Shown here one piece after another: positions 35,319 through 62,078 of a stretch of 64,000 nucleotides of DNA (its first letter is position 1; each line of letters begins with the position of its first letter). This DNA is from Escherichia coli. GTDB lineage: Bacteria; Pseudomonadota; Gammaproteobacteria; Enterobacterales; Enterobacteriaceae. The notes under the pieces are model-generated. The model was not told where the DNA came from, ran no database searches, and saw only the letters and a list, made by a program, of their open reading frames with translations. The DNA lies in the NCBI RefSeq assembly GCF_022846255.1, contig NZ_AP025682.1. The stretch is one strand, 5' to 3'. Made by a program: the position numbers and the translations under genes.

Positions 35319-36480
<1,162 letters not shown>

Positions 36481-36481
<1 letters not shown>

Positions 36482-37338: not shown

Positions 37339-37351
37339 CGTGTTCTCTCCT

Positions 37352-38962
37352 TCAGGCTGATGTGCGTGACGCCAGCCACTGACGTAATTGTTTTTTATCG
37401 ACTTTCCCGACCGCCGTCAGCGGAAGTGAATCCACACACTCCACGCGATCCGGTAATTTAAATTCGGCAATACCCTGTTCACGCAGGAAACGACGCACCT
37501 GCACCGCGCGCAGCGGCTCTTTTACCACCAGATAAGCACAGCTTTTTTCGCCCATCAGCTCATCTTCCATGCTCACCAGTGCGGCGTAGATCACCGCCGG
37601 ATGGCGCAGCAGCAGGTTTTCGATCTCTTCGGCAGCGATCTTCTCGCCGCCACGGTTGATCTGATCTTTCTCGCGTCCCTGCACAGTGATGTAACCCTCT
37701 GGATCAATAGAGATCAGATCGCCGGAACAGTAAAAACCGTTGGCATCAAAGGCGCTGGCATTGTGCTGCGGGCTTTTGTAATAGCCACGGAAGGTGTACG
37801 GCCCGCGCGTCATCAGGCGTCCAACTTCCCCTTGCGGCAGTGGATTTCCTTCGGCATCGGCAACCCATACTTCATCGTCCGGGCACATTGGGTAACCCTG
37901 GGTATGGATAATTTTCTCCGCACTATCATCAAGACGGGTGTAGTTCACCAGCCCTTCCGCCATGCCAAACACCTGCTGCAACTGACAGCCAATCTCAGCG
38001 GGAATACGCGCCGCAAGCGTGGCAGAAAGACGGGCGCCGCCGACCTGTAACAGTTTCAGCGAGGCAAGCTGCGCCCGGCTTTCGCCTTCAGCCAGTGCCT
38101 GCAACCACAGGCTGACTGCTGGCGGCACCAGCGCGGTGACGTTCACCTGATGTTTTTCAATCAATGGGAAGCAAAGCGTAGCGCTGGGGTCGGCAGCCAG
38201 AACGACAGTGCCGCCAGCGAGAAATACCCCCAACGATCCCGGTGAACTCATGGCGTAGTTATGAGCCGCCGGGATCGCGCACAGGTAGCGCGTCTGTTGT
38301 GTGAACTGACAAATCTCGACGCTACGACGCACGCTGTAGTAGTAGTCGTTATGAGTGCGCGGGATCAGTTTCGGAGTGCCGGTGGTGCCGCCGGAAAGCT
38401 GGAAATAGGCCACTTCATCAGCAGGAGATGGCGTGGCAGTAAAATCCTCAGCCGGATGGTTAATCGCATCCTGCAAGTTATGCTCACCGCTGTCGTTGAG
38501 CAGCTGCACCACGCGAATCGAAGAATGCTCTGCAACAAATGTGTTGAGGAAATCATCCCCGCTAAATAGCGCATGTTGGCGATCGGCAATCAGTAACGCC
38601 GGTTCAATCTGGCTGGCATAGGCGTTCAGTTCACTACGCTGATGGCTGAACAGCGCCAGCACCGGCGCAACGCCCAGTTTCAGCAGCGCGAAAAAGGTAA
38701 TGTAAAGTTCAGCGACGTTACCCAGTTGTACCAGCGCGGTTTCACCAGGTTTAATGCCCTGACGGCGCAAACTACAGGCGAGGTTATCCGCCGCCTGATT
38801 CAGCTCCCGGTAACTCAACTGCCGCTCGCCGTCGATAACCGCGATGCTGTCACTCGTAGCGTGGCGAGTCAGAATGTCGGTCAGTGGCAAATCCTGCCAG
38901 TAGCCTTTTTCCCGATAGCGACGGGCAAACTCTTCCGGCCAGCGGGTGAATGGAATGCTCAT
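37352..38962 (-). CDS. entE: 2,3-dihydroxybenzoate-AMP ligase EntE
   Basis: 536 aa adenylate-forming enzyme. Confidence 0.93.
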
Positions 38963-38971
38963 CCTCGCTCC

Positions 38972-40147
38972 TTAATGCAATCCAAAAACGTTCAACATGG
39001 TAGAAAGTTTGACGCCCGTTTCGCGCCACTCACCCAACGGTGAGGACGCAGGCACAATCCCCGCTCCGGCAAACAGACGCACCTGATTTTCCCGCAGCTT
39101 CGCGCAGCGGATGGTCACCACCCATTCACCGTTACCTTCGCTGTCACACCAACCCACAATGCCGCCAAACAGTTCGCGGTCGAACGGCTCCAGTTCAGCA
39201 ATAACCTGAGTCGCGGCCTGATGCGGGAAACCGCTCAGCGCGGGGGTCGGATGCAGCAGACAAGCCAAAGTCAGTGCGTTTTCTTGCGAATTCGCTTTAC
39301 CTTCAAAGGGAGTTGCGAGATGCCACAGCGTCGGCGTGGTAATCAATTGTGGAGAGGAGGGAACGTGTAACTCACTACTGCGTTTGCGCAGTACCTCTTT
39401 CATCGCCTGAGTCACCAGTTCATGTTCATGGCGATCTTTTTCTGACGCCAGCAGACGATTACCCGCTTCGCGATCGAGCACTTCATCCGGCTGACGACGC
39501 GCGGAACCGGCTAACGGAATGGAGCTAAAACGCTCGCCGTCTTTACGTAGCAGCAGTTCCGGGCTGGCCCCCAGCAGAACGCCACCATCAGCCAGCGGGA
39601 CATGGAAGTTGTAACTAACCGGGTTTTGCGCAATCAACCGTTCCAGCAATACGCCACTATCAATGGCGGCGTCAGTGGTGATATCAATCAACCGTGACAA
39701 CACCACTTTGTCGACCTGCGGCGTGGCGGTAAGTGCGGCGGCGCGAGCAACCATCTGTTCAAACGTGGTTTGTTCCGGAATTGCCTGGCGTTCCACCACG
39801 TTCAGCGACTGGCTGCGGGTAAAACGGCGGGCTGAAGATTGTTTTTCCTGGCGGGAGAACGACTGCCAGGACTCGGGAATATACAGCGATGAAGGCTGAC
39901 GTGGATCGAAGGGAATCGCCCCGACCATCACCGGATTTTTGATGCCCTGCGCTTTGGCATCGGCAAACAACGCGGCGAGTTTTTGCTGGAAGGGACTGTC
40001 GGGCGAATCCCCGTTCACAGCCGGTTCATCGAAGCGGGCGAAACATCCTGACGTCGTAAAACTGCGGTACGGCGACATAAAGAAAAAGCGATTGGGCGCA
40101 AGTGTTGCCATGGTCTGCTGTACTTCCTCAGCCAGTGACGTATCCAT
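38972..40147 (-). CDS. entC: Isochorismate synthase EntC
   Basis: 391 aa from [16 protein letters not shown]. Confidence 0.93.
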
Positions 40148-40162
40148 ATCATCCTCCACAAA

Positions 40163-40195
40163 ATGATAAAGGCTTTAATAATGATTATCATTTAT
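40163..40195. promoter_or_regulatory. Fur box(es) in the divergent entC / fepB promoter region
   Basis: aatgataaaggctttaataatgattatcatttat contains close matches to GATAATGATAATCATTATC. Confidence 0.8.
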
Positions 40196-40335
40196 ATTTT
40201 CGGTCGCTAACCTAAAAGCAAACGCGCACTATGTCAACTCTTGAGGTAACGCAATCTGCAACTCGGGGTTGCATCTGGTTGTGGTTACAATGAAAATGAG
40301 AAGCATTAACTTCATTAATAACAGGAAGCTGATTT

Positions 40336-41292
40336 GTGAGACTCGTCCCGCTCTACCGCAACGCCCTTCTATTAACAGGACTTTTGCTTTCAGGAATAGC
40401 CGTAGTTCAGGCCGCCGACTGGCCGCGTCAGATTACTGACAGCCGGGGCACTCATACCCTGGAAAGCCAGCCGCAGCGTATTGTTTCCACCAGCGTCACC
40501 CTGACTGGCTCACTGCTGGCGATTGATGCTCCGGTGATCGCCAGCGGCGCGACCACGCCGAATAACCGCGTCGCGGATGACCAGGGCTTTTTACGCCAGT
40601 GGAGCAAGGTGGCGAAAGAACGCAAACTGCAACGGCTCTATATCGGCGAACCGAGCGCCGAAGCCGTTGCCGCGCAAATGCCGGATTTGATTTTAATTAG
40701 CGCAACCGGCGGGGATTCGGCGCTGGCGCTGTATGATCAGCTTTCCACCATCGCCCCGACATTAATCATCAATTACGACGACAAAAGCTGGCAGGCGCTG
40801 TTAACGCAACTTGGCGAAATTACCGGGCATGAGAAACAAGCGGCAGAGCGGATTGCACAGTTTGATAAGCAACTGGCGGCGGCGAAAGAGCAAATCAAAT
40901 TACCGCCGCAGCCGGTCACTGCCATTGTCTATACCGCCGCTGCACACAGTGCCAATCTCTGGACGCCGGAATCAGCACAAGGGCAGATGCTGGAACAACT
41001 CGGCTTTACGTTGGCGAAATTGCCCGCAGGGTTAAACGCCAGCCAAAGCCAGGGCAAACGCCATGACATCATTCAGCTTGGTGGAGAAAATCTGGCTGCA
41101 GGGTTAAATGGCGAGTCACTATTCCTGTTCGCCGGTGATCAGAAAGACGCCGATGCTATTTATGCTAATCCGCTGCTCGCGCACCTGCCTGCAGTACAAA
41201 ACAAGCAGGTTTATGCGCTGGGAACCGAGACGTTCCGTCTGGATTACTACAGCGCCATGCAAGTGCTGGATAGACTTAAGGCGCTGTTTTAA
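40336..41292 (+). CDS. fepB: Periplasmic ferric enterobactin-binding protein FepB
   Basis: 318 aa, GTG start; signal peptide. Confidence 0.92.
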
Positions 41293-41295
41293 GCA

Positions 41296-42546
41296 TTAAC
41301 TGTCGGACGCTGTCACCTGCGGCGGCGTCTGGCGAAAACGTCGCAACTCCACCAGCACCAGCAACAACAACACGCCGATAATCAACAAACCAAAACCGCT
41401 CGCGCTTGCGGAAGCAACCGGTGTCATCATCGCGCCCAAACCGCCCAGCAGCGCCGCGCCTATGGCATCGCCCGTCACGTTTTGTGCCGTCCACAAACCG
41501 TTAATCCGCCCTAACATCGCTTCCGGGGTTTGCGTTTGCAGCATTGTATATTGCAGCAACGAACTAACCGCGCTCAGCCAGCCGAACAGCGCCAGACAAA
41601 CCACGCCTAAAATCCACATCGGCATCAGGCCAAACAAACCAATGGCGAGGAACGATCCCAGCGTGGAAAGCAGCATCAATAACCCTGGTCGCGCGCTATG
41701 TGCCAGCTTACCGCTGGTTAACGCGCCAATAGCCGCGCCGAGCGGGATCGCCGCATAGAGAAAACCAATCTGTGCCGCCGACATCTGCCAGTTGTCAGCC
41801 AGCGCCGGATACAGGACCCGCACCGCGCTCGCCATCGTCAATAAACCACCCAGCAACGCAATCCCTCCCACCAGCGGGCTGGCGAGTAGAAAACGAAATC
41901 CTGCCAGTAATGATTTCAACGGATGCTCACGCGGCTGCGGCGGTGGTGGCAACGCCGGAAGGCTTAACAACGGTAGCAAGGTAATAAACGTGCCCGCCGC
42001 CGCCAGCCCGTAGTTCCAGGCTACGCCGCCGGTCGCCAGCAGTAAACCGCCAATCATGGGCGAAATCACCGATCCCAGACGCACAGTCAACATGGTGATC
42101 GCCCCGGCCTGCATTAGGTTTTCACGCCCTACCAGTGCAGGTGTCGCCGCCAGTAGCGCCGTAACGCCAAGTGATGCGAAAAAACCATCCCATAAACCAA
42201 GTAAATAGATTGCCAGCAAAGACGGCTCCGGCAGCAGCGCATTCAGGCACAGTCCAATGAAGCCAATGCCACAGGTGCCACGCGCCAGCAAAATCACTTT
42301 TTTACGCTCATAGCGATCCGCCAGCACACCGCCGACCATCAGGCCAACAAACATCGCGCCGCCGGTCAGCGTCACCGAAAGCCCCACCTGCCAGGTAGAA
42401 TGCGTCATCATCTGGATCTGCACCGGCACCGCGACGCCGAGCAAACCCAGAGAAACAATTGAGATAAAACGAGCGAGGAATACTGCGCGAAACGCCGGGT
42501 GCGTTTTCAACAGGCTGAGGTTAAGCAGCCAGGATTGTTTATTCAT
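41296..42546 (-). CDS. entS: Enterobactin exporter EntS (MFS)
   Basis: 416 aa, 12-TM MFS-like. Confidence 0.92.
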
Positions 42547-42618
42547 TACAATGCCTTGCCATCAAATATTTTAAATACCTATTCTTAGGCTGCACATGCT
42601 AACATATCCAAATAAGAT

Positions 42619-42646
42619 CGATAACGATAATTAATTTCATTATCAT
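42619..42646. promoter_or_regulatory. Fur box in the divergent entS / fepD promoter region
   Basis: gataacgataattaatttcattatcat. Confidence 0.8.
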
Positions 42647-42656
42647 GGAAGTTCGT

Positions 42657-43661
42657 ATGTCTGGTTCTGTTGCCGTGACACGCGCCATTGCCGTGCCCGG
42701 ATTGCTGTTATTACTGATTATCGCGACGGCATTAAGCCTACTCATTGGGGCAAAATCACTCCCCGCTTCCGTAGTGCTGGAGGCGCTCTCCGGCACCTGC
42801 CAGAGCGCCGACTGCACCATCGTGCTCGACGCACGACTGCCGCGCACCCTTGCCGGTTTACTGGCAGGCGGTGCGCTTGGCCTTGCCGGGGCGTTAATGC
42901 AAACCCTCACCCGAAACCCGCTTGCCGATCCTGGTTTGCTTGGCGTGAACGCCGGTGCCAGTTTTGCCATTGTGCTGGGCGCGGCGCTGTTTGGTTACTC
43001 TTCCGCGCAGGAACAACTGGCGATGGCCTTCGCCGGGGCGCTGGTGGCCTCGTTGATTGTTGCCTTTACCGGCAGCCAGGGCGGCGGGCAGTTAAGTCCG
43101 GTGCGTTTAACCCTGGCAGGCGTGGCGCTGGCGGCGGTGCTGGAAGGGCTGACCAGCGGCATCGCCCTGCTTAATCCCGACGTCTACGATCAACTGCGTT
43201 TCTGGCAAGCCGGTTCGCTGGATATTCGCAATCTACATACCTTAAAAGTGGTGCTGATCCCGGTGCTTACCGCTGGAGCAACTGCGCTATTACTGAGCCG
43301 CGCGCTGAACAGTTTAAGCCTTGGCAGTGACACCGCGACGGCACTGGGCAGTCGCGTAGCGCGCACACAGTTGATTGGTCTGCTGGCAATTACCGTGCTT
43401 TGTGGTAGTGCGACGGCGGTAGTTGGCCCGATTGCCTTTATTGGCCTGATGATGCCGCACATGGCGCGCTGGCTGGTAGGTGCCGATCATCGCTGGTCGC
43501 TGCCCGTCACGCTACTCGCTACCCCTGCCCTGCTGCTGTTTGCCGATATCATTGGGCGGGTGATTGTTCCCGGCGAACTGCGCGTTTCTGTAGTCAGTGC
43601 CTTTATTGGCGCACCAGTGCTGATCTTCCTCGTACGACGTAAAACGCGAGGTGGCGCATGA
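42657..43661 (+). CDS. fepD: Ferric enterobactin ABC transporter permease FepD
   Basis: 334 aa from MSGSVAVTRAIAV (the ORF track starts 4 codons upstream at 42645). Confidence 0.9.
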   Translation: MSGSVAVTRAIAVPGLLLLLIIATALSLLIGAKSLPASVVLEALSGTCQSADCTIVLDARLPRTLAGLLAGGALGLAGALMQTLTRNPLADPGLLGVNAGASFAIVLGAALFGYSSAQEQLAMAFAGALVASLIVAFTGSQGGGQLSPVRLTLAGVALAAVLEGLTSGIALLNPDVYDQLRFWQAGSLDIRNLHTLKVVLIPVLTAGATALLLSRALNSLSLGSDTATALGSRVARTQLIGLLAITVLCGSATAVVGPIAFIGLMMPHMARWLVGADHRWSLPVTLLATPALLLFADIIGRVIVPGELRVSVVSAFIGAPVLIFLVRRKTRGGA

Positions 43662-44650
43662 TTTACGTCTCTCGCCGATTAATTATCACCTGTCTGCTGT
43701 TGCTAATAGCTTGTGTGATGGCAGGCGTGTGGGGATTACGTAGCGGTGCCGTCACGCTGGAAACTTCGCAGGTATTCGCCGCGTTGATGGGCGACACGCC
43801 GCGCAGTATGACGATGGTGGTCACCGAATGGCGTTTACCACGCGTGCTGATGGCGCTGTTGATTGGCGCGGCGCTGGGCGTCAGCGGCGCGATTTTTCAG
43901 TCGCTGATGCGTAACCCGCTCGGCAGCCCTGACGTAATGGGCTTTAACACCGGGGCGTGGAGCGGCGTGCTGGTGGCGATGGTGCTGTTTGGTCAGGACC
44001 TGACGGCTATCGCGCTGGCAGCAATGGTGGGCGGCATTGTCACTTCGCTGTTGGTCTGGCTGCTCGCCTGGCGTAACGGTATCGACACCTTTCGGTTGAT
44101 TATTATCGGTATCGGTGTTCGCGCCATGCTGGTGGCCTTTAATACCTGGCTGTTGCTGAAAGCGTCTTTAGAAACGGCGCTAACAGCGGGTTTGTGGAAT
44201 GCCGGATCGCTCAATGGCCTGACGTGGGCAAAAACCTCGCCTTCCGCACCCATCATTATATTAATGTTAATTGCCGCCGCCTTGCTGGTGCGGCGAATGC
44301 GCTTGCTGGAAATGGGCGATGATACCGCATGTGCGCTGGGCGTCAGCGTCGAACGTTCGCGACTGTTAATGATGCTGGTCGCCGTAGTGCTTACCGCAGC
44401 TGCCACTGCCCTGGCGGGGCCAATTTCCTTTATTGCTTTAGTCGCGCCACACATTGCCCGCCGCATCAGTGGCACCGCTCGCTGGGGGCTGACCCAGGCG
44501 GCGCTGTGCGGGGCGTTGTTACTGCTGGTGGCCGATCTCTGCGCCCAACAACTGTTTATGCCGTATCAACTTCCGGTTGGCGTCGTTACCGTCAGCCTCG
44601 GCGGTATTTACCTTATCGTCTTGTTAATTCAGGAGTCTCGCAAAAAATGA
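43658..44650 (+). CDS. fepG: Ferric enterobactin ABC transporter permease FepG
   Basis: 330 aa; start overlaps fepD stop. Confidence 0.92.
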   Translation: MIYVSRRLIITCLLLLIACVMAGVWGLRSGAVTLETSQVFAALMGDTPRSMTMVVTEWRLPRVLMALLIGAALGVSGAIFQSLMRNPLGSPDVMGFNTGAWSGVLVAMVLFGQDLTAIALAAMVGGIVTSLLVWLLAWRNGIDTFRLIIIGIGVRAMLVAFNTWLLLKASLETALTAGLWNAGSLNGLTWAKTSPSAPIIILMLIAAALLVRRMRLLEMGDDTACALGVSVERSRLLMMLVAVVLTAAATALAGPISFIALVAPHIARRISGTARWGLTQAALCGALLLLVADLCAQQLFMPYQLPVGVVTVSLGGIYLIVLLIQESRKK

Positions 44651-45462
44651 CCGAATCAGTAGCCCGTTTGCGCGGCGAACAGTTAACCCTCGGATATGGC
44701 AAATATACCGTTGCGGAAAATCTGACTGTAGAAATACCTGATGGTCACTTCACGGCAATTATCGGGCCAAATGGCTGCGGTAAATCCACGTTACTGCGTA
44801 CCTTAAGCCGCCTGATGACGCCTGCTCACGGGCATGTCTGGCTGGATGGCGAGCACATTCAACATTACGCCAGTAAAGAGGTTGCACGCCGGATTGGTCT
44901 GTTGGCGCAAAATGCTACCACACCGGGCGATATCACTGTGCAGGAGCTGGTGGCGCGTGGGCGTTACCCGCATCAACCGCTGTTTACCCGCTGGCGCAAA
45001 GAAGATGAAGACGCGGTAACAAAAGCGATGCAGGCCACGGGAATAACTCATCTGGCGGATCAAAGCGTGGACACCCTTTCTGGCGGACAACGCCAGCGAG
45101 CGTGGATCGCGATGGTGCTGGCCCAGGAAACGGCAATTATGCTGCTCGATGAACCCACGACCTGGCTGGATATCAGTCATCAGATTGATTTGCTGGAACT
45201 GTTAAGCGAACTGAACCGCGAGAAAGGCTATACCCTGGCGGCGGTGCTGCACGATCTTAATCAGGCCTGTCGTTACGCCAGCCATTTGATTGCATTGCGG
45301 GAAGGGAAAATTGTTGCTCAGGGAGCACCGAAGGAGATTGTCACTGCTGAACTGATCGAGCGCATTTATGGTCTGCGCTGCATGATTATTGACGATCCGG
45401 TTGCCGGAACGCCGCTCGTGGTGCCGCTCGGACGAACGGCACCTTCAACCGCAAAGATTTAA
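44647..45462 (+). CDS. fepC: Ferric enterobactin ABC transporter ATPase FepC
   Basis: 271 aa from MTESVARLRGEQ; Walker A GPNGCGKST; start overlaps fepG stop. Confidence 0.93.
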   Translation: MTESVARLRGEQLTLGYGKYTVAENLTVEIPDGHFTAIIGPNGCGKSTLLRTLSRLMTPAHGHVWLDGEHIQHYASKEVARRIGLLAQNATTPGDITVQELVARGRYPHQPLFTRWRKEDEDAVTKAMQATGITHLADQSVDTLSGGQRQRAWIAMVLAQETAIMLLDEPTTWLDISHQIDLLELLSELNREKGYTLAAVLHDLNQACRYASHLIALREGKIVAQGAPKEIVTAELIERIYGLRCMIIDDPVAGTPLVVPLGRTAPSTAKI

Positions 45463-46592
45463 ACTAAGTGGTCTGCCATCATGGCATCCTGTTTTCTGGA
45501 TGCCATCGCATGACGCAACAGCACACCACCACAAGCCACCATCCCGCCGATCAACGCGGAAAGGATCACAATAATAGCCTTACCCGGACCATCTTTTTTC
45601 ACTGGCAATGACGGTCTTAACTGATATTTAAACGGCGTAAAATTCACATCGTTGATATTTGCTTTTGTTAACTGCTCAACAAGATACTGGCGATTACGTA
45701 ATTCGCCGTTCAGTTCCGCAACGTCAGTAACCGCTTTTTCAATTTCCAGTTTGCGTTCAATACCGTCTGCGCCGAGAGAAATAGAGAAATCGGGGTCATC
45801 TTTAACGGCCTGACCATTACTGTATACGGGCTTTTTAATTCCTGCCGCGTTGGCAATGTCGAGTGAATAATTGAGGCGCTGAATGTTTGCATCAAGTTGA
45901 TTTTTCATTTTAATGCGGTCCTGAGCCAGTTTTGCTTTTTCAAACTGGGTTTTGATCTCCAGTTTATTACGGACGTTTTCTATCGACTCTTTCACCACCA
46001 ACACAGAGATATAATCGATATACCCGCTCAAAACGGTCTGCGCCTCTTCACTGGTTGGCGCGGTAAAACTTAGCGTCCAGGAGGTATACAGTGACGGTTC
46101 ATCTTTTTTCTTACTGGCATTGTCATCAACCGCTTTCATTTTTTCGCTCAATGCGACAATTGCGCGATGCAAATCCAGTTCGTCGATTTTCGCCTCTTTT
46201 AATTGGTCCATTACATAAGGTGATGAGCGCAGGTACTCTTCTAGTAAGCTAACAGACTGAAACTTCTTGATAAACAGGTTAAATGCACCGCCACGGTCGA
46301 TATTAACATCGAGATCAAGAACGCGGAGTTTGGTAAAGGTTTTCTCCAGGTCCTGCCACTGAATGGCTTCGGCGGGAGTAATGACGGCTGAGCTGGTCCA
46401 TTTTTGCGGCAGGATGAAAGAGATCAGCAAGCCTGCGCAGGCAAACGCAAAAACGACCGCCATGATCGTTTTTTTGGCCCGCCATAAAACTTCAATTAGA
46501 CTAAGTAAATCAATTTCATTATTACTGGGCGACGCCAGAGGATACTCGGGAAAATGAGCTTCACTTCCCTGTTTAATATTCAGTGATGACAT
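45459..46592 (-). CDS. fepE: Polysaccharide co-polymerase (Wzz-like) FepE
   Basis: 377 aa from MSSLNIKQGSEAHFPEY; N- and C-terminal TM segments. Confidence 0.9.
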   Translation of the reverse strand: MSSLNIKQGSEAHFPEYPLASPSNNEIDLLSLIEVLWRAKKTIMAVVFAFACAGLLISFILPQKWTSSAVITPAEAIQWQDLEKTFTKLRVLDLDVNIDRGGAFNLFIKKFQSVSLLEEYLRSSPYVMDQLKEAKIDELDLHRAIVALSEKMKAVDDNASKKKDEPSLYTSWTLSFTAPTSEEAQTVLSGYIDYISVLVVKESIENVRNKLEIKTQFEKAKLAQDRIKMKNQLDANIQRLNYSLDIANAAGIKKPVYSNGQAVKDDPDFSISLGADGIERKLEIEKAVTDVAELNGELRNRQYLVEQLTKANINDVNFTPFKYQLRPSLPVKKDGPGKAIIVILSALIGGMVACGGVLLRHAMASRKQDAMMADHLV

Positions 46593-46760
46593 GGGGTATA
46601 ACCTGAAAATGAGTCCAATAAGAGTAAATCTCCACGGCCCCCACTCTACCAGTTGGTGAGATTTATCCGAAGCTGAAGTTTGTAAATTACTCCCACTGAA
46701 TGCAACATTCACTCTATTTCAGAGAAATACCCACCAAATTTATAAATTAAACAAATGATA

Positions 46761-46792
46761 AACCCATAATTATTTTCTGTAATTATGGGTTT
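46761..46792 (-). terminator. Stem-loop between entF and fepE (minus strand)
   Basis: Perfect 12-bp inverted repeat aacccataatta / taattatgggtt. Confidence 0.5.
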
Positions 46793-46807
46793 ATAGATAA
46801 TATAAAT

Positions 46808-49800
46808 TTACTTATTTAGCGTCGCACGAATAATCGGCCCAATTTTTTCAAACGCCACCGGAGAGATAATATCCACATGCGCACAATCCTGACGATAGAT
46901 ATCCAGCCCAGCAATCCACGGTGCCCAGGCCTGTTCAGGAGTCATACCTTCCTGAAGCGTGCGTTCGGCAACAAATAGCGTCGCTTTACCATCAAACGGT
47001 ACGCTATGAGCTGTCGTCAGCAGGCGCACAGCATCAGCGTAGTTGCCTTCAATGGTGGTAAACAACTCCGTTGAAGTACTTCCCTGCTGTGCCGCCAGGA
47101 AGGCTTCGCGCTCGCGGTTAATCTCCGCCAGCACTTCCGGGTCCAGACCATTGGCTTCTTTTTCCTGCCAGTTTTGCGTTTCTGGCGGCCAGGTATCCAG
47201 CAAGCCAAGAAATGCCACCTGTTCGCCACGGGCACGCAGTCGCGCCGCAATGCCCTGCGCCAGCGTACCGCCCAGCGAATAACCCAGCAGGTAATATGGG
47301 CCGTGCGGTTGTTGTTCAAGTAACGTTGCCAGATGCGCTTCGCAGACTTCATCCAGATTTGCTGACGTCTGCATGGGGCCATGAGGGCGCGGCGACTGAA
47401 TGCCGATAATCGACCATTGTGGATCGAGATAACGCGAGAGCACGCTGAACTGCCAGGCAAAACCGGATGCCGGATGGAAACAAAACAGCGTCGGACCATT
47501 ACCTTCACGCAACGGCAGAATGGTTTCGAATCCCATGCGCTGGGTGCTGTCTTCTTCACCATCAATAATCGTTGCCAGTTTGGCGACAGTTGACGCGACC
47601 ATCACCTGCCCCGGCGTCACCTGACGAGCAAACTGTCGACTTAACTGCGCTGCCAGTTTCATTGCCAGTAGCGAATGACCGCCAAGCGCAAAGAAATCAG
47701 CATCGGCATCCTGCACGTCACAACCCAGCAACGACGAGAATGCCGCGGCGATAATCGTTTCACTGCCCGCTTTCGGCGCACGCCCCGGCGCTTGTGCCTT
47801 CAGTTCAGGCAACGGTAAGGCTTTGCGATCCAGCTTGCCGTTGGCGCTAAGTGGTAACTGTGGAAGTTGCAGCAGAACCACCGGTACCATATGTGGTGGC
47901 AATGTTTCACGAAGCTGCGCCTGTAATGCGCTGGTATCCAACGGCAGACCTGATTGCGACACCAGATAGCCCACCAACTGACGCGCATCACCACCAGTGG
48001 CTGCCGCCTGGTTAATCACACAGGCGTGGGTAACGGCTTGTTCGACATCCGGCAGCGCCTGCATCACGCGATCAATTTCGCCCAGTTCGATACGCTGCCC
48101 GCGAATTTTTAGCTGATCGTCACTGCGCCCGAGGTACTCCACCGCGCCGTTATCCAGCCAGCGGGCCACATCGCCGGTACGGTACATCCGTTCACCTGGG
48201 GCAAAAGGATCGGCAATAAAGCGGCTGGCGGTCAGATCGGGTCGTCCAAGATACCCCTGCGCCAGTTGAATACCGGTGAGATAGAGATCTCCCGCCACAC
48301 CCGGCGGCACCGGATGCATCATCGCATCGAGAATGCGCAGGCCCGTATTCCACACCGGATAACCGATCGGCACACTGCTGCCGCGCACCTCTGCCAGTTC
48401 CTCGCCAAAAGCCGGATACCAACTGACATCTACCGCCGCTTCCGTCGGGCCATATAGATTATGCAACGGCGCGCCGGTTAACTGTTGCCATTCGCGGCAT
48501 AAATCAGCCGGTAAGGCTTCACCACTACAGAAAACCTGTTTCAACGTCGCGCAACTCTGGCGAGCGGTTTGCGGCGTCAGCGATGCAACAAATGCCGCCA
48601 GCATCGACGGCACAAAGTGCGTGGTCGTTACGCCATAATCAGCAAAAAAATGCTGCATAGCGAGCGGGTCGCGGTGCGCTTCCGGTTCAGCCATCACCAG
48701 TTTCGCCCCGGCAATAAACGGCCAGAAAAACTCCCACACCGAGACATCAAAACTGCACGGCGTTTTTTGGGCAACGACATCTTCGCCTGTAAGCGGGTAA
48801 TGGTTTTGCATCCAAAGCAGGCGATTAACGATAGCCGTCTGCCCGACCATTACCCCTTTTGGTCTGCCGGTGGAACCGGAGGTGAAGATGATATAAGCCG
48901 TGTGGTGCGGTTGTGAAAGCTGCAGCGGCGCACTGCCCTGTGGGGTAAGCGGGGCGTTATAGCAAAGGCTGGTTAAATTAGGGATATCGCTAAAGCGCGG
49001 CAGTTGATCGTCAGTGGTGATTAACAGCGACGGACGCGCATCTTCCAGCATCATTTTCAGGCGATCGTCCGGATAGCCGGTATCCAACGGTAGCCAGGCC
49101 GCACCAGCTTCAACTATCGCATGTAGCGCCAGGGTCAAAAAGACCGAGCGCGGTAGAGCCACCGCCACGCTGTCGCCCGGTTTAACGCCGCGCTCACGCA
49201 GCAGATTCGCCAGCGCCACCACCTGCTCGCGCATTTCCCGATAGCTGAACTGGTAACGCGCATCTGCCAGCGCCGGAGCATCCGGTGTTTTTGCCGCTTG
49301 TTCTGCCACCAGCGCGCTCAGCGTGGTTTCTGGAATCTCAACCTGAGTGGCGTTGATCTGCGCCAGCTGCGCATACTCGCCTGGCAGCATAATATCGACA
49401 TCGCCGCACAACAGCGACGGATCCGCGGCGAACTGCGCAATCAGCATTTTCAGGCGTTCAGCGTGTTGAATTAACGTTGGCTCATCGTAACGCTGTTTAT
49501 TGGCGAGGATCTCAATACTCAAATCACCGTGTTCATCCGGGAACAGGGCCAGTTCAAGGTCATTAACCGGACCGGTTGCCAGGGTATGGGTTTGCGCCTG
49601 AACACCAGGAATATCCAGTTGGTAATCAAATACCTTGATATTGAGTACCGGACCGAACAGCGGTTCCTCTCCCGCCGCGCGCCCGCTGTCACGGACAATT
49701 TGTTCGGCATCGTAACGTTGATGGCGACGCATTTTTTTCAGTTGAGCCGCCAGTCGGGTTGCCAGTTCTGGTAGCGTTTCTTGCGCCGCAATGTGAATAC

Positions 49801-50689
49801 CCAACGGCAAAACGTTGAGCACGGGTCCGGTAGCCGTCAGCGCCGCCGAGCCCAGTCGACGCATAAAGATAAATCCGGCAGCGTAGTCCATGCGGTTGCA
49901 CAATCGCCCCAGCCACAAGGCTGCCAACGCAAGTGCTAAATCGGTACGCTGCACACCTGAAAGTTGCGTAGCCAGCTGGCGGAATTCCCCGTTGGTAAAT
50001 TCCAGTTTCAGGCGCAAAATATCTGCCGAAGCGCTGCGCCCCGGTAAAGGTGCCGGAGAAAGTGACGCGGGCGGTGGTAGTTGACGACGCTGTTCCGCCC
50101 AGAATGCCGCATCACGCTGCCAGGCTTCACTTTCGCGGTACTGCTGATACTCTTCCACTACATCAGCGAAAGGCGTAAACGGCGAAGCAGGCGTTGGTTC
50201 GCCACGCAGCAATGCGCAGTAAATGTTGGCGATCTGGCGTGTAATGGCCGGGAAACTGAAGCCATCGACCAGCAAATGGTGATAACGCTGATACCAGTAC
50301 CAGCGGTTATCCGCCACCTGTATCAGTTGATGAAAGACCAGTGGTTTACCACTATCGACGCGCAGATCTTGTTGCAAATCCGCCTGCATTAATGCCCGCG
50401 CAGTACCGTGCGGATCAATGTTGGTTCGCAGGTCGATAATTTCTGGCAGTTCGAACGTCTGCGCATCATCGACCCACTGCCAGACTTCGCCGTTATCTTC
50501 CGTAAAACGCATCCGCAACGTATCTGCTTGCGCTAGTCCGGCAACCACCGCGCGGGCCAGTAGTGGCGCATCAACCTCTCCGGTTAACTCAACGTAATGC
50601 GCCACGCTCCAGGCGGAGGGTAAATCCGACAGTTTTTCTGCCATCCAGATGCCGGGCTGTGCGGCGACCAAAGGTAAATGCTGGCTCAT
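46808..50689 (-). CDS. entF: Enterobactin synthase NRPS component F (C-A-PCP-TE, serine-activating)
   Basis: 1293 aa from MSQHLPLVAAQPGIWMAEKL; NRPS motifs (HHxxxDG, adenylation core, LGGHSL carrier site, thioesterase GxSxG). Confidence 0.95.
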   Translation of the reverse strand: MSQHLPLVAAQPGIWMAEKLSDLPSAWSVAHYVELTGEVDAPLLARAVVAGLAQADTLRMRFTEDNGEVWQWVDDAQTFELPEIIDLRTNIDPHGTARALMQADLQQDLRVDSGKPLVFHQLIQVADNRWYWYQRYHHLLVDGFSFPAITRQIANIYCALLRGEPTPASPFTPFADVVEEYQQYRESEAWQRDAAFWAEQRRQLPPPASLSPAPLPGRSASADILRLKLEFTNGEFRQLATQLSGVQRTDLALALAALWLGRLCNRMDYAAGFIFMRRLGSAALTATGPVLNVLPLGIHIAAQETLPELATRLAAQLKKMRRHQRYDAEQIVRDSGRAAGEEPLFGPVLNIKVFDYQLDIPGVQAQTHTLATGPVNDLELALFPDEHGDLSIEILANKQRYDEPTLIQHAERLKMLIAQFAADPSLLCGDVDIMLPGEYAQLAQINATQVEIPETTLSALVAEQAAKTPDAPALADARYQFSYREMREQVVALANLLRERGVKPGDSVAVALPRSVFLTLALHAIVEAGAAWLPLDTGYPDDRLKMMLEDARPSLLITTDDQLPRFSDIPNLTSLCYNAPLTPQGSAPLQLSQPHHTAYIIFTSGSTGRPKGVMVGQTAIVNRLLWMQNHYPLTGEDVVAQKTPCSFDVSVWEFFWPFIAGAKLVMAEPEAHRDPLAMQHFFADYGVTTTHFVPSMLAAFVASLTPQTARQSCATLKQVFCSGEALPADLCREWQQLTGAPLHNLYGPTEAAVDVSWYPAFGEELAEVRGSSVPIGYPVWNTGLRILDAMMHPVPPGVAGDLYLTGIQLAQGYLGRPDLTASRFIADPFAPGERMYRTGDVARWLDNGAVEYLGRSDDQLKIRGQRIELGEIDRVMQALPDVEQAVTHACVINQAAATGGDARQLVGYLVSQSGLPLDTSALQAQLRETLPPHMVPVVLLQLPQLPLSANGKLDRKALPLPELKAQAPGRAPKAGSETIIAAAFSSLLGCDVQDADADFFALGGHSLLAMKLAAQLSRQFARQVTPGQVMVASTVAKLATIIDGEEDSTQRMGFETILPLREGNGPTLFCFHPASGFAWQFSVLSRYLDPQWSIIGIQSPRPHGPMQTSANLDEVCEAHLATLLEQQPHGPYYLLGYSLGGTLAQGIAARLRARGEQVAFLGLLDTWPPETQNWQEKEANGLDPEVLAEINREREAFLAAQQGSTSTELFTTIEGNYADAVRLLTTAHSVPFDGKATLFVAERTLQEGMTPEQAWAPWIAGLDIYRQDCAHVDIISPVAFEKIGPIIRATLNK

Positions 50690-50904
50690 TGTGCCTCCTG
50701 CAACTGGGTGAAATTCGCCGGTGTCAGAGTACGCCAGTGGGCTTCCAGCCACTGCAGGCAGGACGCCTGTGACTGCGGCTGACACACAACGTCCCAGCCT
50801 GCCGGTAAGGCGCATTGTTGCGGCCACAGACTGAATTGCCCCTGCGCATTGCGCAAAATGTAAAACGCTCCCTGTGGATCATCGAAGGGATTACTGAATG
50901 CCAT
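50686..50904 (-). CDS. ybdZ: MbtH-like protein YbdZ
   Basis: 72 aa from MAFSNPFDDPQGAFYILRNAQGQFSLWP (MbtH signature); stop overlaps entF start. Confidence 0.9.
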   Translation of the reverse strand: MAFSNPFDDPQGAFYILRNAQGQFSLWPQQCALPAGWDVVCQPQSQASCLQWLEAHWRTLTPANFTQLQEAQ

Positions 50905-50906
50905 AT

Positions 50907-52109
50907 TCAACTCCTGTCATGGAAAAGTGGTTGCCAGAGGTCGATTAGCCCCTGCATCAAGCCACCGCGCCAACAAAGCGCATCATGTCCGCCGTCAACC
51001 TGACGCCAGAAAATGGATTCTTTTAGGGGGTGTAATTGCGCATACAGCGCCTGATTGGCCTGCATGATCATCGGCTCGCGAACACCCGCTTCCAGCACAA
51101 TGCGCAGACCTTCGGCGCTAACTTCACCAGTTTTTAGCTGTTCAAGTAACACGCCCTCTTGGTGCCCGCCCCGATGCGGCCACCAGTACGAACCTGACTG
51201 GCTTAATACACAGCCAAAGCGTTCAGGCCAGTGCAGTCCGGCATACAGCGCGGAAAGCCCACCAAAACTCTGTCCGGCAACCACGGTGCGATCGGCGCGA
51301 TCGCTAAAAGGGGCAATAGTTTTCACCAGGGGTAATAACTCTTGCTGTACTGCCAGCCAGAAATCCGCATTACACGGCAGTTCGTGGGCGCGGTGCGCGG
51401 TGTCGATAGCGTCGATCAACACATACACGGCGGGCGGAAGTTGCCGACGATGGGTCAGCGAAGTCAGCGCAGGCCAGACGGGCATACTCTGCGCCCAAAA
51501 TTCGCCATCAAGCAAAACTGCCAGCGGGCGTTCTTCTGCTGTTGCATCGCCGGTGGTAAAAATCCATACACGGCGTGAATTTTTCAACCGTTCACTTTTC
51601 CAGATAATTTCTTTGGCAGGCGTTTCTGGCGCTTGCGGACAATCCCATCCCGGTTGCAGAGACGCTTGCGGCATTTCGAGTGCAGAAACAGCGTGCCCGC
51701 GCCCGCCTTTCCAGCTTTGTGGATTCAGCGGATCGGCTATCGCCTGGGGTAATAGTTTTCGCCAGCCTTCGCGTAATTCGAGGCGATCGGGGGATGGTGC
51801 AGAAAAAATGTCATCGCGTTCAGTAGGAATAAAGCAGTAGCTGCCGCGCCAGTTGGCATTGAGTTGTGTCGTCCACTGCCAAACATCGGTTCCTGCAATT
51901 CGCTGCATCGACCGGGGCTGGCTGTTCTGATGGTGATCGGTCACGCCAGTGATATAGACCCATACGCGCTTTATCGTCGAGTATTCTTCAGAACCCTGGG
52001 GATCACGCCACCAGAAAGTGACCTCAAACATTTCGTCATTCAGACGTTGCCATTCCGGGCCATGTTTCGACTGCCACCAGCTCTCACTTCCTACTTTTAA
52101 CGCCGTCAC
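50907..52109 (-). CDS. fes: Ferric enterobactin esterase Fes
   Basis: 400 aa ORF from the most upstream in-frame start; esterase fold; upstream of ybdZ-entF. Confidence 0.88.
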   Translation of the reverse strand: MTALKVGSESWWQSKHGPEWQRLNDEMFEVTFWWRDPQGSEEYSTIKRVWVYITGVTDHHQNSQPRSMQRIAGTDVWQWTTQLNANWRGSYCFIPTERDDIFSAPSPDRLELREGWRKLLPQAIADPLNPQSWKGGRGHAVSALEMPQASLQPGWDCPQAPETPAKEIIWKSERLKNSRRVWIFTTGDATAEERPLAVLLDGEFWAQSMPVWPALTSLTHRRQLPPAVYVLIDAIDTAHRAHELPCNADFWLAVQQELLPLVKTIAPFSDRADRTVVAGQSFGGLSALYAGLHWPERFGCVLSQSGSYWWPHRGGHQEGVLLEQLKTGEVSAEGLRIVLEAGVREPMIMQANQALYAQLHPLKESIFWRQVDGGHDALCWRGGLMQGLIDLWQPLFHDRS

Positions 52110-52134
52110 ACCATAACCCCATGTTTACTGTGCA

Positions 52135-52185
52135 ATTTTTTATTGATTGCAGAAATATATTGATAATATTATTGATAACTATTTG
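52135..52185. promoter_or_regulatory. Overlapping Fur boxes in the divergent fes / fepA promoter region
   Basis: tattgattgcagaaatatattgataatattattgataactatt contains tandem GATAAT-type repeats. Confidence 0.8.
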
Positions 52186-52351
52186 CATTTGCAATAGCGT
52201 AATGGCGCGCCGTGGGAAGCGCGGACATTAATTAATCAGCTGCACTGCGTGTCTTTCAGGATCAAAGGTTTTCGCGGTAGCGGGATGCGTCGTGTTGATG
52301 ACGACCATGCCCGACAGTTGCAATTCGTGGCAAAAATGCAGGAATAAAACA

Positions 52352-54592
52352 ATGAACAAGAAGATTCATTCCCTGGCCTTGTTGGTCAATCTGGGGATTT
52401 ATGGGGTAGCACAGGCACAAGAGCCGACCGATACTCCTGTTTCACATGACGATACTATTGTTGTTACCGCCGCCGAGCAGAACTTGCAGGCGCCCGGCGT
52501 TTCGACCATCACCGCAGATGAAATCCGCAAAAACCCGGTTGCCCGCGATGTATCGGAGATTATCCGTACCATGCCTGGCGTTAACCTGACCGGTAACTCC
52601 ACCAGTGGTCAGCGTGGTAATAACCGACAGATTGATATTCGCGGCATGGGTCCGGAAAACACGCTGATTTTGATTGACGGCAAGCCGGTCAGCAGCCGTA
52701 ACTCTGTGCGTCAGGGCTGGCGTGGCGAGCGCGATACCCGTGGTGATACCTCCTGGGTGCCGCCTGAAATGATTGAACGTATTGAAGTTCTACGTGGTCC
52801 GGCAGCTGCGCGTTATGGCAACGGCGCGGCGGGCGGCGTGGTTAACATCATTACCAAAAAAGGCAGCGGTGAGTGGCACGGCTCCTGGGATGCTTATTTC
52901 AATGCGCCAGAACATAAAGAGGAAGGTGCCACCAAACGCACCAACTTCAGCCTGACCGGTCCGCTGGGCGACGAATTCAGCTTCCGCTTGTATGGCAACC
53001 TCGACAAAACCCAGGCTGACGCGTGGGATATCAACCAGGGCCATCAGTCCGCGCGTGCCGGAACGTATGCCACGACGTTACCAGCCGGGCGCGAAGGGGT
53101 GATCAACAAAGATATTAATGGCGTGGTGCGCTGGGACTTCGCGCCTCTGCAGTCACTCGAACTGGAAGCGGGCTACAGCCGCCAGGGTAACCTGTATGCG
53201 GGTGATACGCAGAACACCAACTCTGACGCTTACACTCGATCGAAATATGGCGATGAAACCAACCGCCTGTATCGCCAGAACTACTCGCTGACCTGGAACG
53301 GTGGCTGGGATAACGGCGTGACCACCAGCAACTGGGTGCAGTACGAACACACCCGTAACTCGCGTATTCCGGAAGGTCTGGCGGGCGGTACCGAAGGGAA
53401 ATTTAACGAAAAAGCGACGCAGGATTTTGTAGATATCGATCTTGATGACGTGATGCTGCACAGCGAAGTTAACCTGCCGATTGATTTCCTCGTAAACCAA
53501 ACGCTGACGCTGGGTACAGAGTGGAATCAGCAACGGATGAAGGACTTAAGTTCCAACACCCAGGCGCTGACCGGAACGAATACCGGCGGTGCTATTGATG
53601 GTGTGAGTGCCACCGACCGTAGCCCGTATTCAAAAGCAGAAATTTTCTCGCTATTTGCCGAAAACAATATGGAGCTGACTGACAGCACCATCGTAACGCC
53701 GGGGCTGCGTTTCGATCATCACAGTATTGTCGGCAATAACTGGAGTCCGGCTCTAAACATATCGCAAGGTTTAGGCGATGACTTCACGCTGAAAATGGGC
53801 ATTGCCCGTGCTTATAAAGCGCCGAGTCTGTACCAGACTAACCCAAACTACATTCTCTACAGTAAAGGTCAGGGCTGCTATGCCAGCGCGGGCGGCTGCT
53901 ATCTGCAAGGTAATGATGACCTGAAAGCGGAAACCAGCATCAACAAGGAGATTGGTCTGGAGTTCAAACGCGACGGCTGGCTGGCGGGCGTGACCTGGTT
54001 CCGTAACGATTATCGCAATAAGATTGAAGCGGGCTATGTGGCTGTAGGGCAAAACGCAGTCGGCACCGATCTCTATCAGTGGGATAACGTACCGAAAGCG
54101 GTGGTTGAAGGTCTGGAAGGATCGTTAAACGTACCGGTTAGCGAAACGGTGATGTGGACCAATAACATCACTTATATGCTGAAGAGTGAAAACAAAACCA
54201 CGGGCGACCGTTTGTCGATCATCCCGGAATATACGTTGAACTCAACGCTGAGCTGGCAGGCACGGGAAGATTTGTCGATGCAAACGACCTTCACCTGGTA
54301 CGGCAAGCAGCAGCCGAAGAAGTACAACTACAAAGGTCAGCCAGCGGTTGGACCGGAAACCAAAGAAATCAGTCCGTACAGCATTGTTGGCCTGAGCGCG
54401 ACCTGGGATGTGACCAAGAATGTCAGTCTGACCGGCGGCGTGGACAACCTGTTCGACAAACGTTTGTGGCGTGCGGGTAATGCCCAGACCACGGGCGATC
54501 TGGCAGGAGCCAACTATATCGCAGGTGCCGGGGCGTATACCTATAACGAGCCGGGACGTACGTGGTATATGAGCATTAATACTCACTTCTGA
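52352..54592 (+). CDS. fepA: TonB-dependent ferric enterobactin outer membrane receptor FepA
   Basis: 746 aa from MNKKIHSLALLVNLGIYGVAQA; TonB box DTIVVTA; C-terminal aromatic residue. Confidence 0.95.
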   Translation: MNKKIHSLALLVNLGIYGVAQAQEPTDTPVSHDDTIVVTAAEQNLQAPGVSTITADEIRKNPVARDVSEIIRTMPGVNLTGNSTSGQRGNNRQIDIRGMGPENTLILIDGKPVSSRNSVRQGWRGERDTRGDTSWVPPEMIERIEVLRGPAAARYGNGAAGGVVNIITKKGSGEWHGSWDAYFNAPEHKEEGATKRTNFSLTGPLGDEFSFRLYGNLDKTQADAWDINQGHQSARAGTYATTLPAGREGVINKDINGVVRWDFAPLQSLELEAGYSRQGNLYAGDTQNTNSDAYTRSKYGDETNRLYRQNYSLTWNGGWDNGVTTSNWVQYEHTRNSRIPEGLAGGTEGKFNEKATQDFVDIDLDDVMLHSEVNLPIDFLVNQTLTLGTEWNQQRMKDLSSNTQALTGTNTGGAIDGVSATDRSPYSKAEIFSLFAENNMELTDSTIVTPGLRFDHHSIVGNNWSPALNISQGLGDDFTLKMGIARAYKAPSLYQTNPNYILYSKGQGCYASAGGCYLQGNDDLKAETSINKEIGLEFKRDGWLAGVTWFRNDYRNKIEAGYVAVGQNAVGTDLYQWDNVPKAVVEGLEGSLNVPVSETVMWTNNITYMLKSENKTTGDRLSIIPEYTLNSTLSWQAREDLSMQTTFTWYGKQQPKKYNYKGQPAVGPETKEISPYSIVGLSATWDVTKNVSLTGGVDNLFDKRLWRAGNAQTTGDLAGANYIAGAGAYTYNEPGRTWYMSINTHF

Positions 54593-54631
54593 AGCTAACG
54601 TCAGATTGTTGACAAAGTGCGCGTAGTTCAT

Positions 54632-54666
54632 GCCGGATGCGGCGTGAACGCCTTATCCGGCCTACA
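54632..54666. repeat. REP element (first arm of a BIME) between fepA and entD
   Basis: gccggatgcggcgtgaacgccttatccggcctaca. Confidence 0.85.
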
Positions 54667-54701
54667 AAAAATCTTGCCAATTCAATATATTGCAGGACCA
54701 C

Positions 54702-54731
54702 GTAGGCCTGATAAGCGTAGCGCATCAGGCA
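54702..54731. repeat. Inverted REP element (second arm of the BIME)
   Basis: gtaggcctgataagcgtagcgcatcaggca, a REP in opposite orientation to 54632-54666. Confidence 0.8.
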
Positions 54732-54767
54732 GTTTTGCGTTTGTCATCATTCTCTAATATGGTTGAC

Positions 54768-57187: not shown

Positions 57188-57216
57188 TTAATACCTCTGA
57201 ATTTATTTTCAACATG

Positions 57217-57228
57217 GAATATTTATTC
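57217..57228. promoter_or_regulatory. Imperfect copy (GAATATTTATTC) of the island palindrome, 30 bp upstream of the transketolase start
   Basis: Near-palindromic 12-mer related to GAATATATATTC. Confidence 0.35.
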
Positions 57229-58500: not shown

Positions 58501-58525
58501 TCCTCTCCTCCCTTTCTTCTGCCCG

Positions 58526-62077: not shown

Positions 62078-62078
62078 T

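Follow-up and report, generated by a model that had tools for sequence, protein, structure and literature searches.

How are the genes for making and transporting enterobactin controlled in this E. coli genome, and do their control regions match those defined in K-12? We analysed a single 64-kb stretch of DNA (hereafter, the window), of which positions 35.3-55.4 kb are the E. coli ent-fep locus. Note that the Fur architecture of ent-fep is already known, and is textbook material. Three Fur-controlled bidirectional regions give rise to six operons (PMC4911079), and the ent and fep genes are part of the core regulon controlled by Fur in nine strains (PMC10164565). Iron- and Fur-dependent transcription of ent-fep has been described in nine E. 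coli strains, one of them K-12 (PMC10164565, PMC4676285). We conclude, with very little doubt, that the window carries the canonical E. coli enterobactin synthesis and transport locus, under four Fur operators in three divergent regions. Here, this is based on gene content, intactness, identity to footprinted K-12 operators, the significance of position weight matrix (PWM) matches, and conservation across genera. Fur binding and iron-dependent repression are carried over from the literature on identical K-12 sequence.

At least 80% of the segment between positions 33000 and 55500 is present in 5411 of 5426 complete E. coli genomes. Using BLAST and annotation, we found the gene set to be complete and in canonical order. 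As originally predicted, identities and orientations agree with RefSeq annotation of E. coli and the cluster is fully intact. Each of the 16 genes (entHABEC, fepB, entS, fepDGC, fepE, entF, ybdZ, fes, fepA, and entD) is full length and free of internal stops, and the Pfam domains of their products are as expected. Fifteen do not differ in length from their K-12 counterparts. The exception is EntD, which has 219 amino acids here, and is likewise annotated in strains PAR and AF16, compared with 206 in K-12.

The entC-entE-entB-entA-entH operon (35319..40147, minus strand; RefSeq annotation of PAR and K-12) is intact and encodes products with 99.2-100% amino-acid identity to K-12. It is adjacent to fepB (40336..41292, plus strand), which has a GTG start and encodes the periplasmic ferric-enterobactin binding protein (Pfam Peripla_BP_2). 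The gene for the MFS enterobactin exporter, entS (41296..42546, minus strand; annotation and Pfam), is divergent from the fepD-fepG-fepC ABC importer operon (42657..45462, plus strand), in which neighbouring genes overlap by 4 bp. Similarly, the fes-ybdZ-entF operon (46808..52109, minus strand; annotation, Pfam MbtH and Enterochelin_N) is divergent from the fepA-entD unit (52352..55427). The latter consists of fepA (52352-54592, plus strand; annotation and Pfam), a REP/BIME pair (54632-54730), and entD (54768-55427, plus strand). An Rfam match to ES036/CssrF in the fepA-entD spacer sits between the two REP/BIME elements and overlaps them, and so was not counted as a separate gene. Two nucleotides separate the fes TGA from the ybdZ ATG. 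As had been claimed, YbdZ belongs to the MbtH family (Pfam PF03621, 79.4 bits; cutoff 27). Its gene is immediately upstream of the NRPS gene entF, and the ybdZ TGA overlaps the entF ATG (ATGA, 50686-50689), which suggests translational coupling. The fur gene is absent from the 64-kb window.

Since the published Fur model was trained on ent sites, its use here would be circular. Hence, we rebuilt the PWM, which is symmetric and 19 bp long, from 14 non-ent K-12 Fur sites alone. In the 64-kb window there are four matches of at least 16 bits, all in entC/fepB or entS/fepD, compared with 0.135 expected from dinucleotide shuffles. For matches of at least 12 bits, chance expectation is 1.5 per 64 kb. 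The top three PWM cluster scores in the window correspond to entC/fepB, entS/fepD, and fes/fepA, the three regions named in the original prediction. Fur-box-like sequence is present in each named interval, well above chance according to both PWM and shuffles. However, the description of all three as close consensus matches fits only entC/fepB and entS/fepD (15-16 of 19 positions) and not fes/fepA (12-13 of 19, 11.9 bits). Counting 19-mer consensus matches picks out the first two regions and misses fes/fepA, so the PWM and cluster score were used instead.

K-12 DNase footprints (PMC2189734 Table 3) were transferred to the window by aligning the divergent regions. Throughout the footprinted operators the window sequence is identical to K-12, except for the final ~7-10 bp of the fepB footprint. 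For comparison across genera, we used 80 related ent-fep loci from ~30 genera of Enterobacteriaceae, in which gene order is kept. Of 288 matches with at least 16 bits in these loci, 274 are inside the three spacers, equivalent to 2.5% of the DNA. Every related locus has a Fur site in each of the three spacers, with constant spacing from the genes, and within each divergent spacer conservation peaks at the operators. Plausible sigma-70 hexamers were identified near the operators by eye, and by a consensus scan requiring at least four of six matches per hexamer and nine of 12 overall; none were resolved for entS, and start sites are inferred. Owing to this match rule, the strongest candidates for entC, fepB, and fes escaped the scan. 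The placement of the putative hexamers with respect to operators is consistent with statements in PMC5020551 and PMC2189734.

The region between entC and fepB had been assigned a single Fur site. Instead, there are two separate operators, ~115 bp apart. The entC operator (40152..40200) corresponds to the K-12 DNase footprint at NC_000913.2 624054-624102 (PMC2189734) and is identical to K-12 in sequence. Here, three overlapping Fur boxes, at 40171, 40177, and 40183, score 13.4, 17.0, and 11.8 bits respectively. The best, spanning 40177-40195 (AATAATGATTATCATTTAT), matches the consensus at 15 of 19 positions. The cluster score of 53.3 is the window maximum and conservation is 0.84 among 67 non-Escherichia sequences. 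The predicted interval, 40163-40195, contains the boxes at 40171 and 40177; the box at 40183 runs 6 bp past its end. The operator is downstream of the likely entC transcription start, at ~40202. The corresponding putative promoter (40209..40237, minus strand) has a -35 element, TTGACA (40237-40232), and a -10 element, TAGGTT (40214-40209), separated by 17 nt. Both hexamers are within conserved blocks. This agrees with PMC5020551, where Fur box 2 is downstream of its +1, -10, and -35.

The fepB operator (40285..40315; K-12 footprint 623939-623969, PMC2189734) was missed by the original prediction, and brings the number of operators to four rather than three. Its Fur box (40292-40310, GAAAATGAGAAGCATTAAC) scores 18.4 bits, matches the consensus at 15 of 19 positions, and is 'Fur box 1' of PMC5020551. 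The operator overlaps the -10 element and start site of a putative fepB promoter (40269..40297, plus strand), proposed from sequence and conservation pattern. This has a -35 element, TTGCAT (40269-40274), a 17-nt spacer, a -10 element, GAAAAT (40292-40297), and a start at ~40304. In PMC5020551, Fur box 1 overlaps its -10 and -35, and two functional Fur boxes drive iron-controlled bidirectional expression of fepB and entC. Among 72 related loci, 68 have a second site that lies over 100 nt away from entC and scores at least 10 bits.

By comparison, entS and fepD have one common operator (42606..42674), equivalent to the K-12 fepD-entS footprint at 621394-621462 (PMC2189734). The overlapping core boxes, 42620-42638 and 42626-42644, score 19.2 and 17.3 bits and match the consensus at 15 and 16 of 19 positions. 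Both are inside the predicted interval of 42619-42646. The core is 12-18 bp upstream of the fepD ATG, and a secondary K-12 footprint extends into fepD. A site with at least 16.8 bits occurs at the same position in 75 of 75 related loci.

The operator at fes/fepA matches the consensus least well but is conserved most strongly. This common operator (52153..52200; K-12 fepA-fes footprint 611868-611915, PMC2189734) has weak boxes with 6-bp phasing at 52156, 52162, 52168, and 52174, scoring 6.7, 7.2, 11.9, and 9.0 bits. The best two are 52168-52186 and 52174-52192, and the region matches the consensus at 12-13 of 19 positions. By sequence match alone, a single-site score of 11.9 bits would not stand out from chance. 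The summed score for the array, 34.7, is third in the window behind entC/fepB and entS/fepD. Conservation is 0.95 in the operator versus 0.47 in the remaining spacer (~60 non-Escherichia species). The predicted interval, 52135-52185, starts ~18 bp early, and ends ~15 bp before the end of the footprint. A putative fes promoter (52166..52194, minus strand; -35 TTGCAA 52194-52189, 17-nt spacer, -10 TAATAT 52171-52166) is wholly within the operator, in a fully conserved block, and predicts a fes start at ~52159. A candidate fepA promoter from the consensus scan (52143..52172, plus strand; TTGATT, 18-nt spacer, TATTAT) has its -10 element inside the operator.

These arrangements suggest a simple scheme. 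Genes are read outward from the three divergent regions: entCEBAH/fepB, entS/fepDGC, and fes-ybdZ-entF/fepA-entD. The regions contain four Fur operators, with entC and fepB each having their own, one common to entS and fepD, and one common to fes and fepA. When iron is sufficient, Fe2+-Fur dimers would bind the arrays of overlapping 19-bp boxes. Bound Fur would cover, or sit just downstream of, sigma-70 elements, so that transcription is blocked both ways. When iron is scarce, Fur would lose its metal and leave the DNA, and all six transcripts would be derepressed together.

Could the Fur-like matches instead have arisen by chance in AT-rich intergenic DNA, with no operator function? Among 100 dinucleotide shuffles of each divergent spacer, none reached the observed score for entC/fepB or entS/fepD, and two did so for fes/fepA. 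Moreover, the sites are at fixed positions, in the best-conserved blocks, across ~60-75 species, and Fur gives DNase footprints on the identical K-12 sequences (PMC2189734). Set against this, the spacers are indeed AT-rich (31-42% G+C), consensus matches of 12 or 13 out of 19 are common (95 window positions), and the PWM score at fes/fepA is modest. On balance, we regard chance as an explanation with next to no credibility.

Only slightly more credible, and still very improbable, is that the extreme conservation of 52153-52203 stems mainly from the overlap of two promoters, or from some other regulator, and that Fur binds only weakly there. The independent PWM gives only 6.7-11.9 bits, the putative fes and fepA -35 and -10 hexamers are within the conserved block, and conservation (0.95) exceeds that of stronger Fur boxes elsewhere. 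However, the K-12 footprint covers exactly the conserved block, and four phased boxes are the pattern reported at all footprinted Fur sites (PMC2189734). Furthermore, Fur strongly represses fepA and fes, both of which belong to its core regulon (PMC10164565, PMC4676285). Note that promoter and operator constraint are not exclusive. Hence, a contribution from overlapping promoters refines, rather than replaces, our explanation of a canonical locus under four Fur operators.

The original prediction had three divergent Fur-box promoters organising the enterobactin locus. This is borne out for the three divergent regions, which are identical or nearly identical to footprinted K-12 DNA, but probably does not extend to fepE (45459..46592, minus strand), encoding a Wzz-family regulator of O-antigen chain length (Pfam Wzz). 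We place fepE probably outside Fur-controlled units because none of the three regions obviously covers it, a terminator-like hairpin comes before it, and Fur iModulon gene lists do not include it (PMC10164565). The hairpin (46758..46794, minus strand), with 15 pairs and then a T-rich tail, is just past the entF stop codon; 0.1 such structures are expected from shuffles. PWM matches of 9.9-11.9 bits around the entF-fepE spacer (46505-46777) were considered as a Fur operator for fepE and rejected. The best match is an arm of the AT-rich terminator hairpin, and the lack of fepE in Fur gene lists also disfavours such an operator. The gene is missing from most related genera.

The fepB-entC spacer is 188 bp in the window compared with 374 bp in K-12. 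The difference is a GC-rich hairpin repeat of 186 bp in the K-12 fepB leader, inserted from window position 40306-40309 and absent here. The long leader occurs in 2755 of 5426 E. coli genomes (~half), and the short form is found also in other Escherichia species and other genera. The 222-nt leader of K-12 folds at -94 kcal/mol; searching its insertion against Rfam gave just spurious miRNA-hairpin matches, below threshold. We tentatively suggest, as a rather unlikely possibility, that the short leader is ancestral, that the K-12 repeat, at ~+5, clips the 3' edge of the fepB Fur footprint, and that a regulatory difference between alleles might follow. If so, alleles may differ in fepB mRNA stability, translation, or tightness of Fur repression, and the K-12-based view of fepB regulation would be inapplicable to strains like that of the window.

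Judged from its DNA, the strain's enterobactin system is complete and presumably under iron control, and its operators match those defined experimentally in K-12. The value of our analysis is mainly in annotation quality: a corrected map, having four operators with exact coordinates, caution concerning fepE, and the fepB-leader polymorphism.

The closest known systems are the three divergent regions of K-12. Like the window, the fepB-entC bidirectional promoter-operator region (Brickman et al. 1990, as cited in PMC2189734 and PMC5020551) has two Fur boxes, one for each of the back-to-back promoters. The sequence is the same from the entC start codon to ~+5 of the putative fepB transcript. The final two bases of the fepB Fur box are AC in the window and TT in K-12, giving PWM scores of 18.4 and 17.7 respectively. 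For the fepDGC-entS (ybdA) region (Christoffersen et al. 2001; Lavrrar et al. 2002, as cited in PMC2189734), with its single common Fur cluster, the full 110-bp spacer is 100% identical to the window; spacer alignment detected no differences. The fepA-fes region (Hunt et al. 1994; Escolar et al. 1998, as cited in PMC2189734 and PMC3788343) has a 242-bp spacer in both cases and an identical footprinted operator. Three SNPs, at 52141, 52236, and 52239, are all outside the operator. Beyond E. coli, Salmonella, Citrobacter, Klebsiella, Enterobacter, Kosakonia, Buttiauxella, and others have the same gene order, three divergent spacers, and Fur-box positions as the window. They differ in that most genera outside Escherichia, Citrobacter, and Salmonella are without fepE, and some have extra genes between fepC and entF.

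Consensus matches were counted at all window positions, using GATAATGATAATCATTATC. The highest counts of the whole window were at 42626 (16/19) and at 42620, 40177, and 40292 (15/19 each). We also built a symmetric Fur position weight matrix (PWM), leaving out the ent sites. The matrix derives from 14 non-ent K-12 sites with experimental support (fhuA, fur, gpmA, tonB, yoeA, cir, exbB, ryhB, sodA, fecA, fecI, fhuF, sufA, and bfd; coordinates from PMC2189734). Its consensus is the classical Fur box, information content is 16.3 bits, and leave-one-out scores are 10-23 bits. Only four window positions scored at least 16 bits: 42620 (19.2), 40292 (18.4), 42626 (17.3), and 40177 (17.0). Dinucleotide shuffles predict 0.135 such matches per window, so the PWM scan suggested alongside the original prediction gave a clear excess. 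Positive PWM scores were then summed over 19 consecutive start positions. The top three clusters of the whole window were entC/fepB (40165-40201, score 53.3), entS/fepD (42614-42650, 42.7), and fes/fepA (52156-52192, 34.7); 0.26 clusters of at least 30 are expected from block shuffles. Hence, Fur-box matches are present in all three divergent regions named originally. The description "close matches to the consensus" suits entC/fepB and entS/fepD but not fes/fepA, where counts peak at 12-13/19. Note that 95 window positions score 12 or 13/19. PWM scores at fes/fepA, in 6-bp steps, were 6.7 (52156), 7.2 (52162), 11.9 (52168), and 9.0 (52174) bits.

K-12 DNase-I footprints, given in NC_000913.2 coordinates (PMC2189734 Table 3), were carried over to the window. 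The offset to NC_000913.3 is +778, verified against the fepA start. Between K-12 and the window, the entS-fepD spacer is 100% identical, the fes-fepA spacer has three differences (52141, 52236, and 52239), and the entC-fepB spacer has none until 40305-40308. The mapped footprints are 40152-40200 (entC), 40285-40315 (fepB), 42606-42674 (fepD-entS), and 52153-52200 (fepA-fes). There are therefore four operators within three regions. Consistent with this, two Fur boxes without overlap are described at fepB/entC, and the fragment drives iron-controlled expression both ways (PMC5020551). Of the intervals first proposed, 40163-40195 and 42619-42646 lie inside footprints, but 52135-52185 is displaced ~18 bp to the left and the fepB operator was overlooked.

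A FepG scan of species-representative genomes yielded 80 loci representing ~30 genera of Enterobacteriaceae, across which the three divergent spacers and gene order are kept. Best PWM scores were at least 16.8 bits in all 75 entS/fepD loci, at least 11.7 bits in all 62 fes/fepA loci, and at least 11 bits in all 73 entC/fepB loci (at least 16 bits in 65). Sites occupy fixed positions, ~17 bp before fepD and ~59 bp from fes. Within 1.5 Mb of related loci, 274/288 matches of at least 16 bits fall in the three spacers, which are 2.5% of the DNA. Both entC-proximal and fepB-side sites reach at least 10 bits in 65/72 loci. Alignments made without Escherichia had a mean identity to the window of 0.95 inside the fepA-fes footprint versus 0.47 in the rest of the spacer. 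Equivalent values were 0.84 (entC) and 0.73 (fepB) versus 0.56, and 0.76 (fepD-entS) versus 0.63. Hence, fes/fepA is the poorest consensus match yet the most constrained block. Such constraint fits an operator laid over two overlapping promoters.

Promoter positions were inferred from sequence and conservation. The putative minus-strand entC promoter has a -35 element, TTGACA, at 40237-40232, a -10 element, TAGGTT, at 40214-40209, and a start at ~40202; the entC Fur boxes would therefore be downstream of the start. The putative plus-strand fepB promoter has TTGCAT at 40269-40274, GAAAAT at 40292-40297, and a start at ~40304, with the Fur box spanning the -10 element and start. The spacing of the two starts, ~102 bp, reportedly matches that of Brickman et al. 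in 1990. Both layouts are consistent with the description in PMC5020551. The predicted minus-strand fes promoter (TTGCAA, 52194-52189; TAATAT, 52171-52166) is within the operator, and a candidate fepA promoter is at 52143-52172. A candidate fepD promoter at 42556-42585 would place the Fur cluster between promoter and start codon, as remarked in PMC2189734. No entS promoter was resolved in this reading of the entS/fepD spacer.

The cluster had been called fully intact, with an MbtH-like ybdZ coupled to entF. Translations, Pfam domains, and an ATGA overlap between the ybdZ stop and entF start bear out the intactness and the MbtH-like, overlapping ybdZ. None of the 16 ent and fep genes has an internal stop; 15/16 products match K-12 in length (amino-acid identity 93.6-100%). 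EntD has 219 aa, a length also annotated for strains PAR and AF16, versus 206 aa in K-12. Domains are as expected for YbdZ (MbtH), Fes (Enterochelin_N and esterase), FepA (Plug and barrel), EntS (MFS), FepE (Wzz), and EntD (PPTase). Judging from the overlap, ybdZ and entF may be translationally coupled; there are 2 nt between the fes stop and the ybdZ start. In RefSeq annotation of PAR and K-12 MG1655, the genes follow the canonical order cstA, entH-A-B-E-C, fepB, entS, fepD-G-C, fepE, entF, ybdZ, fes, fepA, entD. At least 80% of window 33000-55500 is matched in 5411/5426 complete E. coli genomes, with a top identity of 98.5% (PAR).

The claim that three promoters organise the locus holds with confidence for 15/16 genes. 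The exception is fepE (45459-46592, minus strand), downstream of entF, which is probably a separate unit outside Fur control, because a terminator-like hairpin (46794-46758, minus strand; 15 bp and a T-rich tail) directly follows the entF stop. Furthermore, fepE encodes a Wzz-family product (Pfam), is missing from most genera otherwise retaining the locus, and is not listed among Fur iModulon genes (PMC10164565). A fepE operator in the entF-fepE spacer was considered and rejected, the modest PWM matches there coinciding with an AT-rich hairpin arm. The stop codons of convergent fepC (plus) and fepE (minus) overlap by 4 bp at 45459-45462, leaving no space for a terminator between them.

Other features of the window were recorded. 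The fourth-best cluster is two overlapping Fur-like boxes (29319-29343; 15.0 and 12.4 bits) in the ybdN coding sequence (28464-29684). Binding in vitro is known for Fur sites within genes. Matches of 10.6 and 13.6 bits occur in the lipB-ybeF spacer (5611-5688); the ybeF ORF is just 113 aa, in keeping with its annotation as a pseudogene in strain A3. The fepA-entD spacer has a REP/BIME pair (54632-54730; GCCGGATGCGGCGTGAACGCCTTATCCGGCCTAC and inverted partner), hence ~35 BLAST places per genome. An Rfam ES036/CssrF match (54668-54709) lies in the gap between the REPs and overlaps the second. Rfam matches at gathering score are a cspA-type thermoregulator 5'UTR at cspE (8895-9343, minus), the rnk leader (22321-22429, plus), and STnc70 upstream of ahpC (26234-26327, minus). 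Compared with sequenced E. coli, the window is a mosaic. Identity over the left 25 kb is 99.3% with A3 and A26 and 99.2% with UPEC 536; the ent region reaches at most 98.5% (PAR), and the right end shares 99.0% identity with AF16. Fes, YbdZ, and FepE are the most divergent ent-region proteins (94-96% to K-12). An accessory sugar-utilisation island (55429-64000; split transketolase, sugar-binding regulator, FGGY kinase, and ribose-type ABC transporter) is complete in only 629/5426 E. coli genomes; in K-12, IS186 adjoins entD instead. AF16, the closest match, has a frameshift in the ABC ATPase ORF, which is intact in the window (62079-63623).

Footprint mapping, PWM scores, conservation, and published regulon data support the predicted iron-repressed architecture. 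Across nine E. coli strains, the core Fur regulon includes the ent and fep genes (PMC10164565), which are among the strongest-repressed Fur targets in K-12 (PMC4676285). Fe2+-Fur dimers would occupy overlapping boxes, described with 6-bp spacing (PMC2189734), occluding the promoters; iron loss would release Fur and derepress all six transcripts. We conclude that the established Fur repression model very probably applies to this ent-fep locus, whose control regions are already known in detail. One difference from K-12 is in the fepB leader. K-12 has a 186-bp GC-rich inverted-repeat (hairpin) element that the window lacks, so the entC/fepB spacer is 374 bp in K-12 versus 188 bp here. The insertion point, 40306-40309, is ambiguous, since TTA is repeated at both ends; it is ~+5 of the predicted fepB transcript, within the fepB footprint at its 3' edge. 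Folding energies (MFE) are -94 kcal/mol in K-12 versus -2.5 kcal/mol for the short form. The long leader occurs in 2755/5426 complete E. coli genomes, and the median number of places matching the element is 6 per genome. The short leader (40305-40336) is also found in PAR, other Escherichia species, and most genera; given the latter two, the window probably retains the ancestral form. The fepB Fur-box score is hardly changed, at 18.4 in the window versus 17.7 in K-12.
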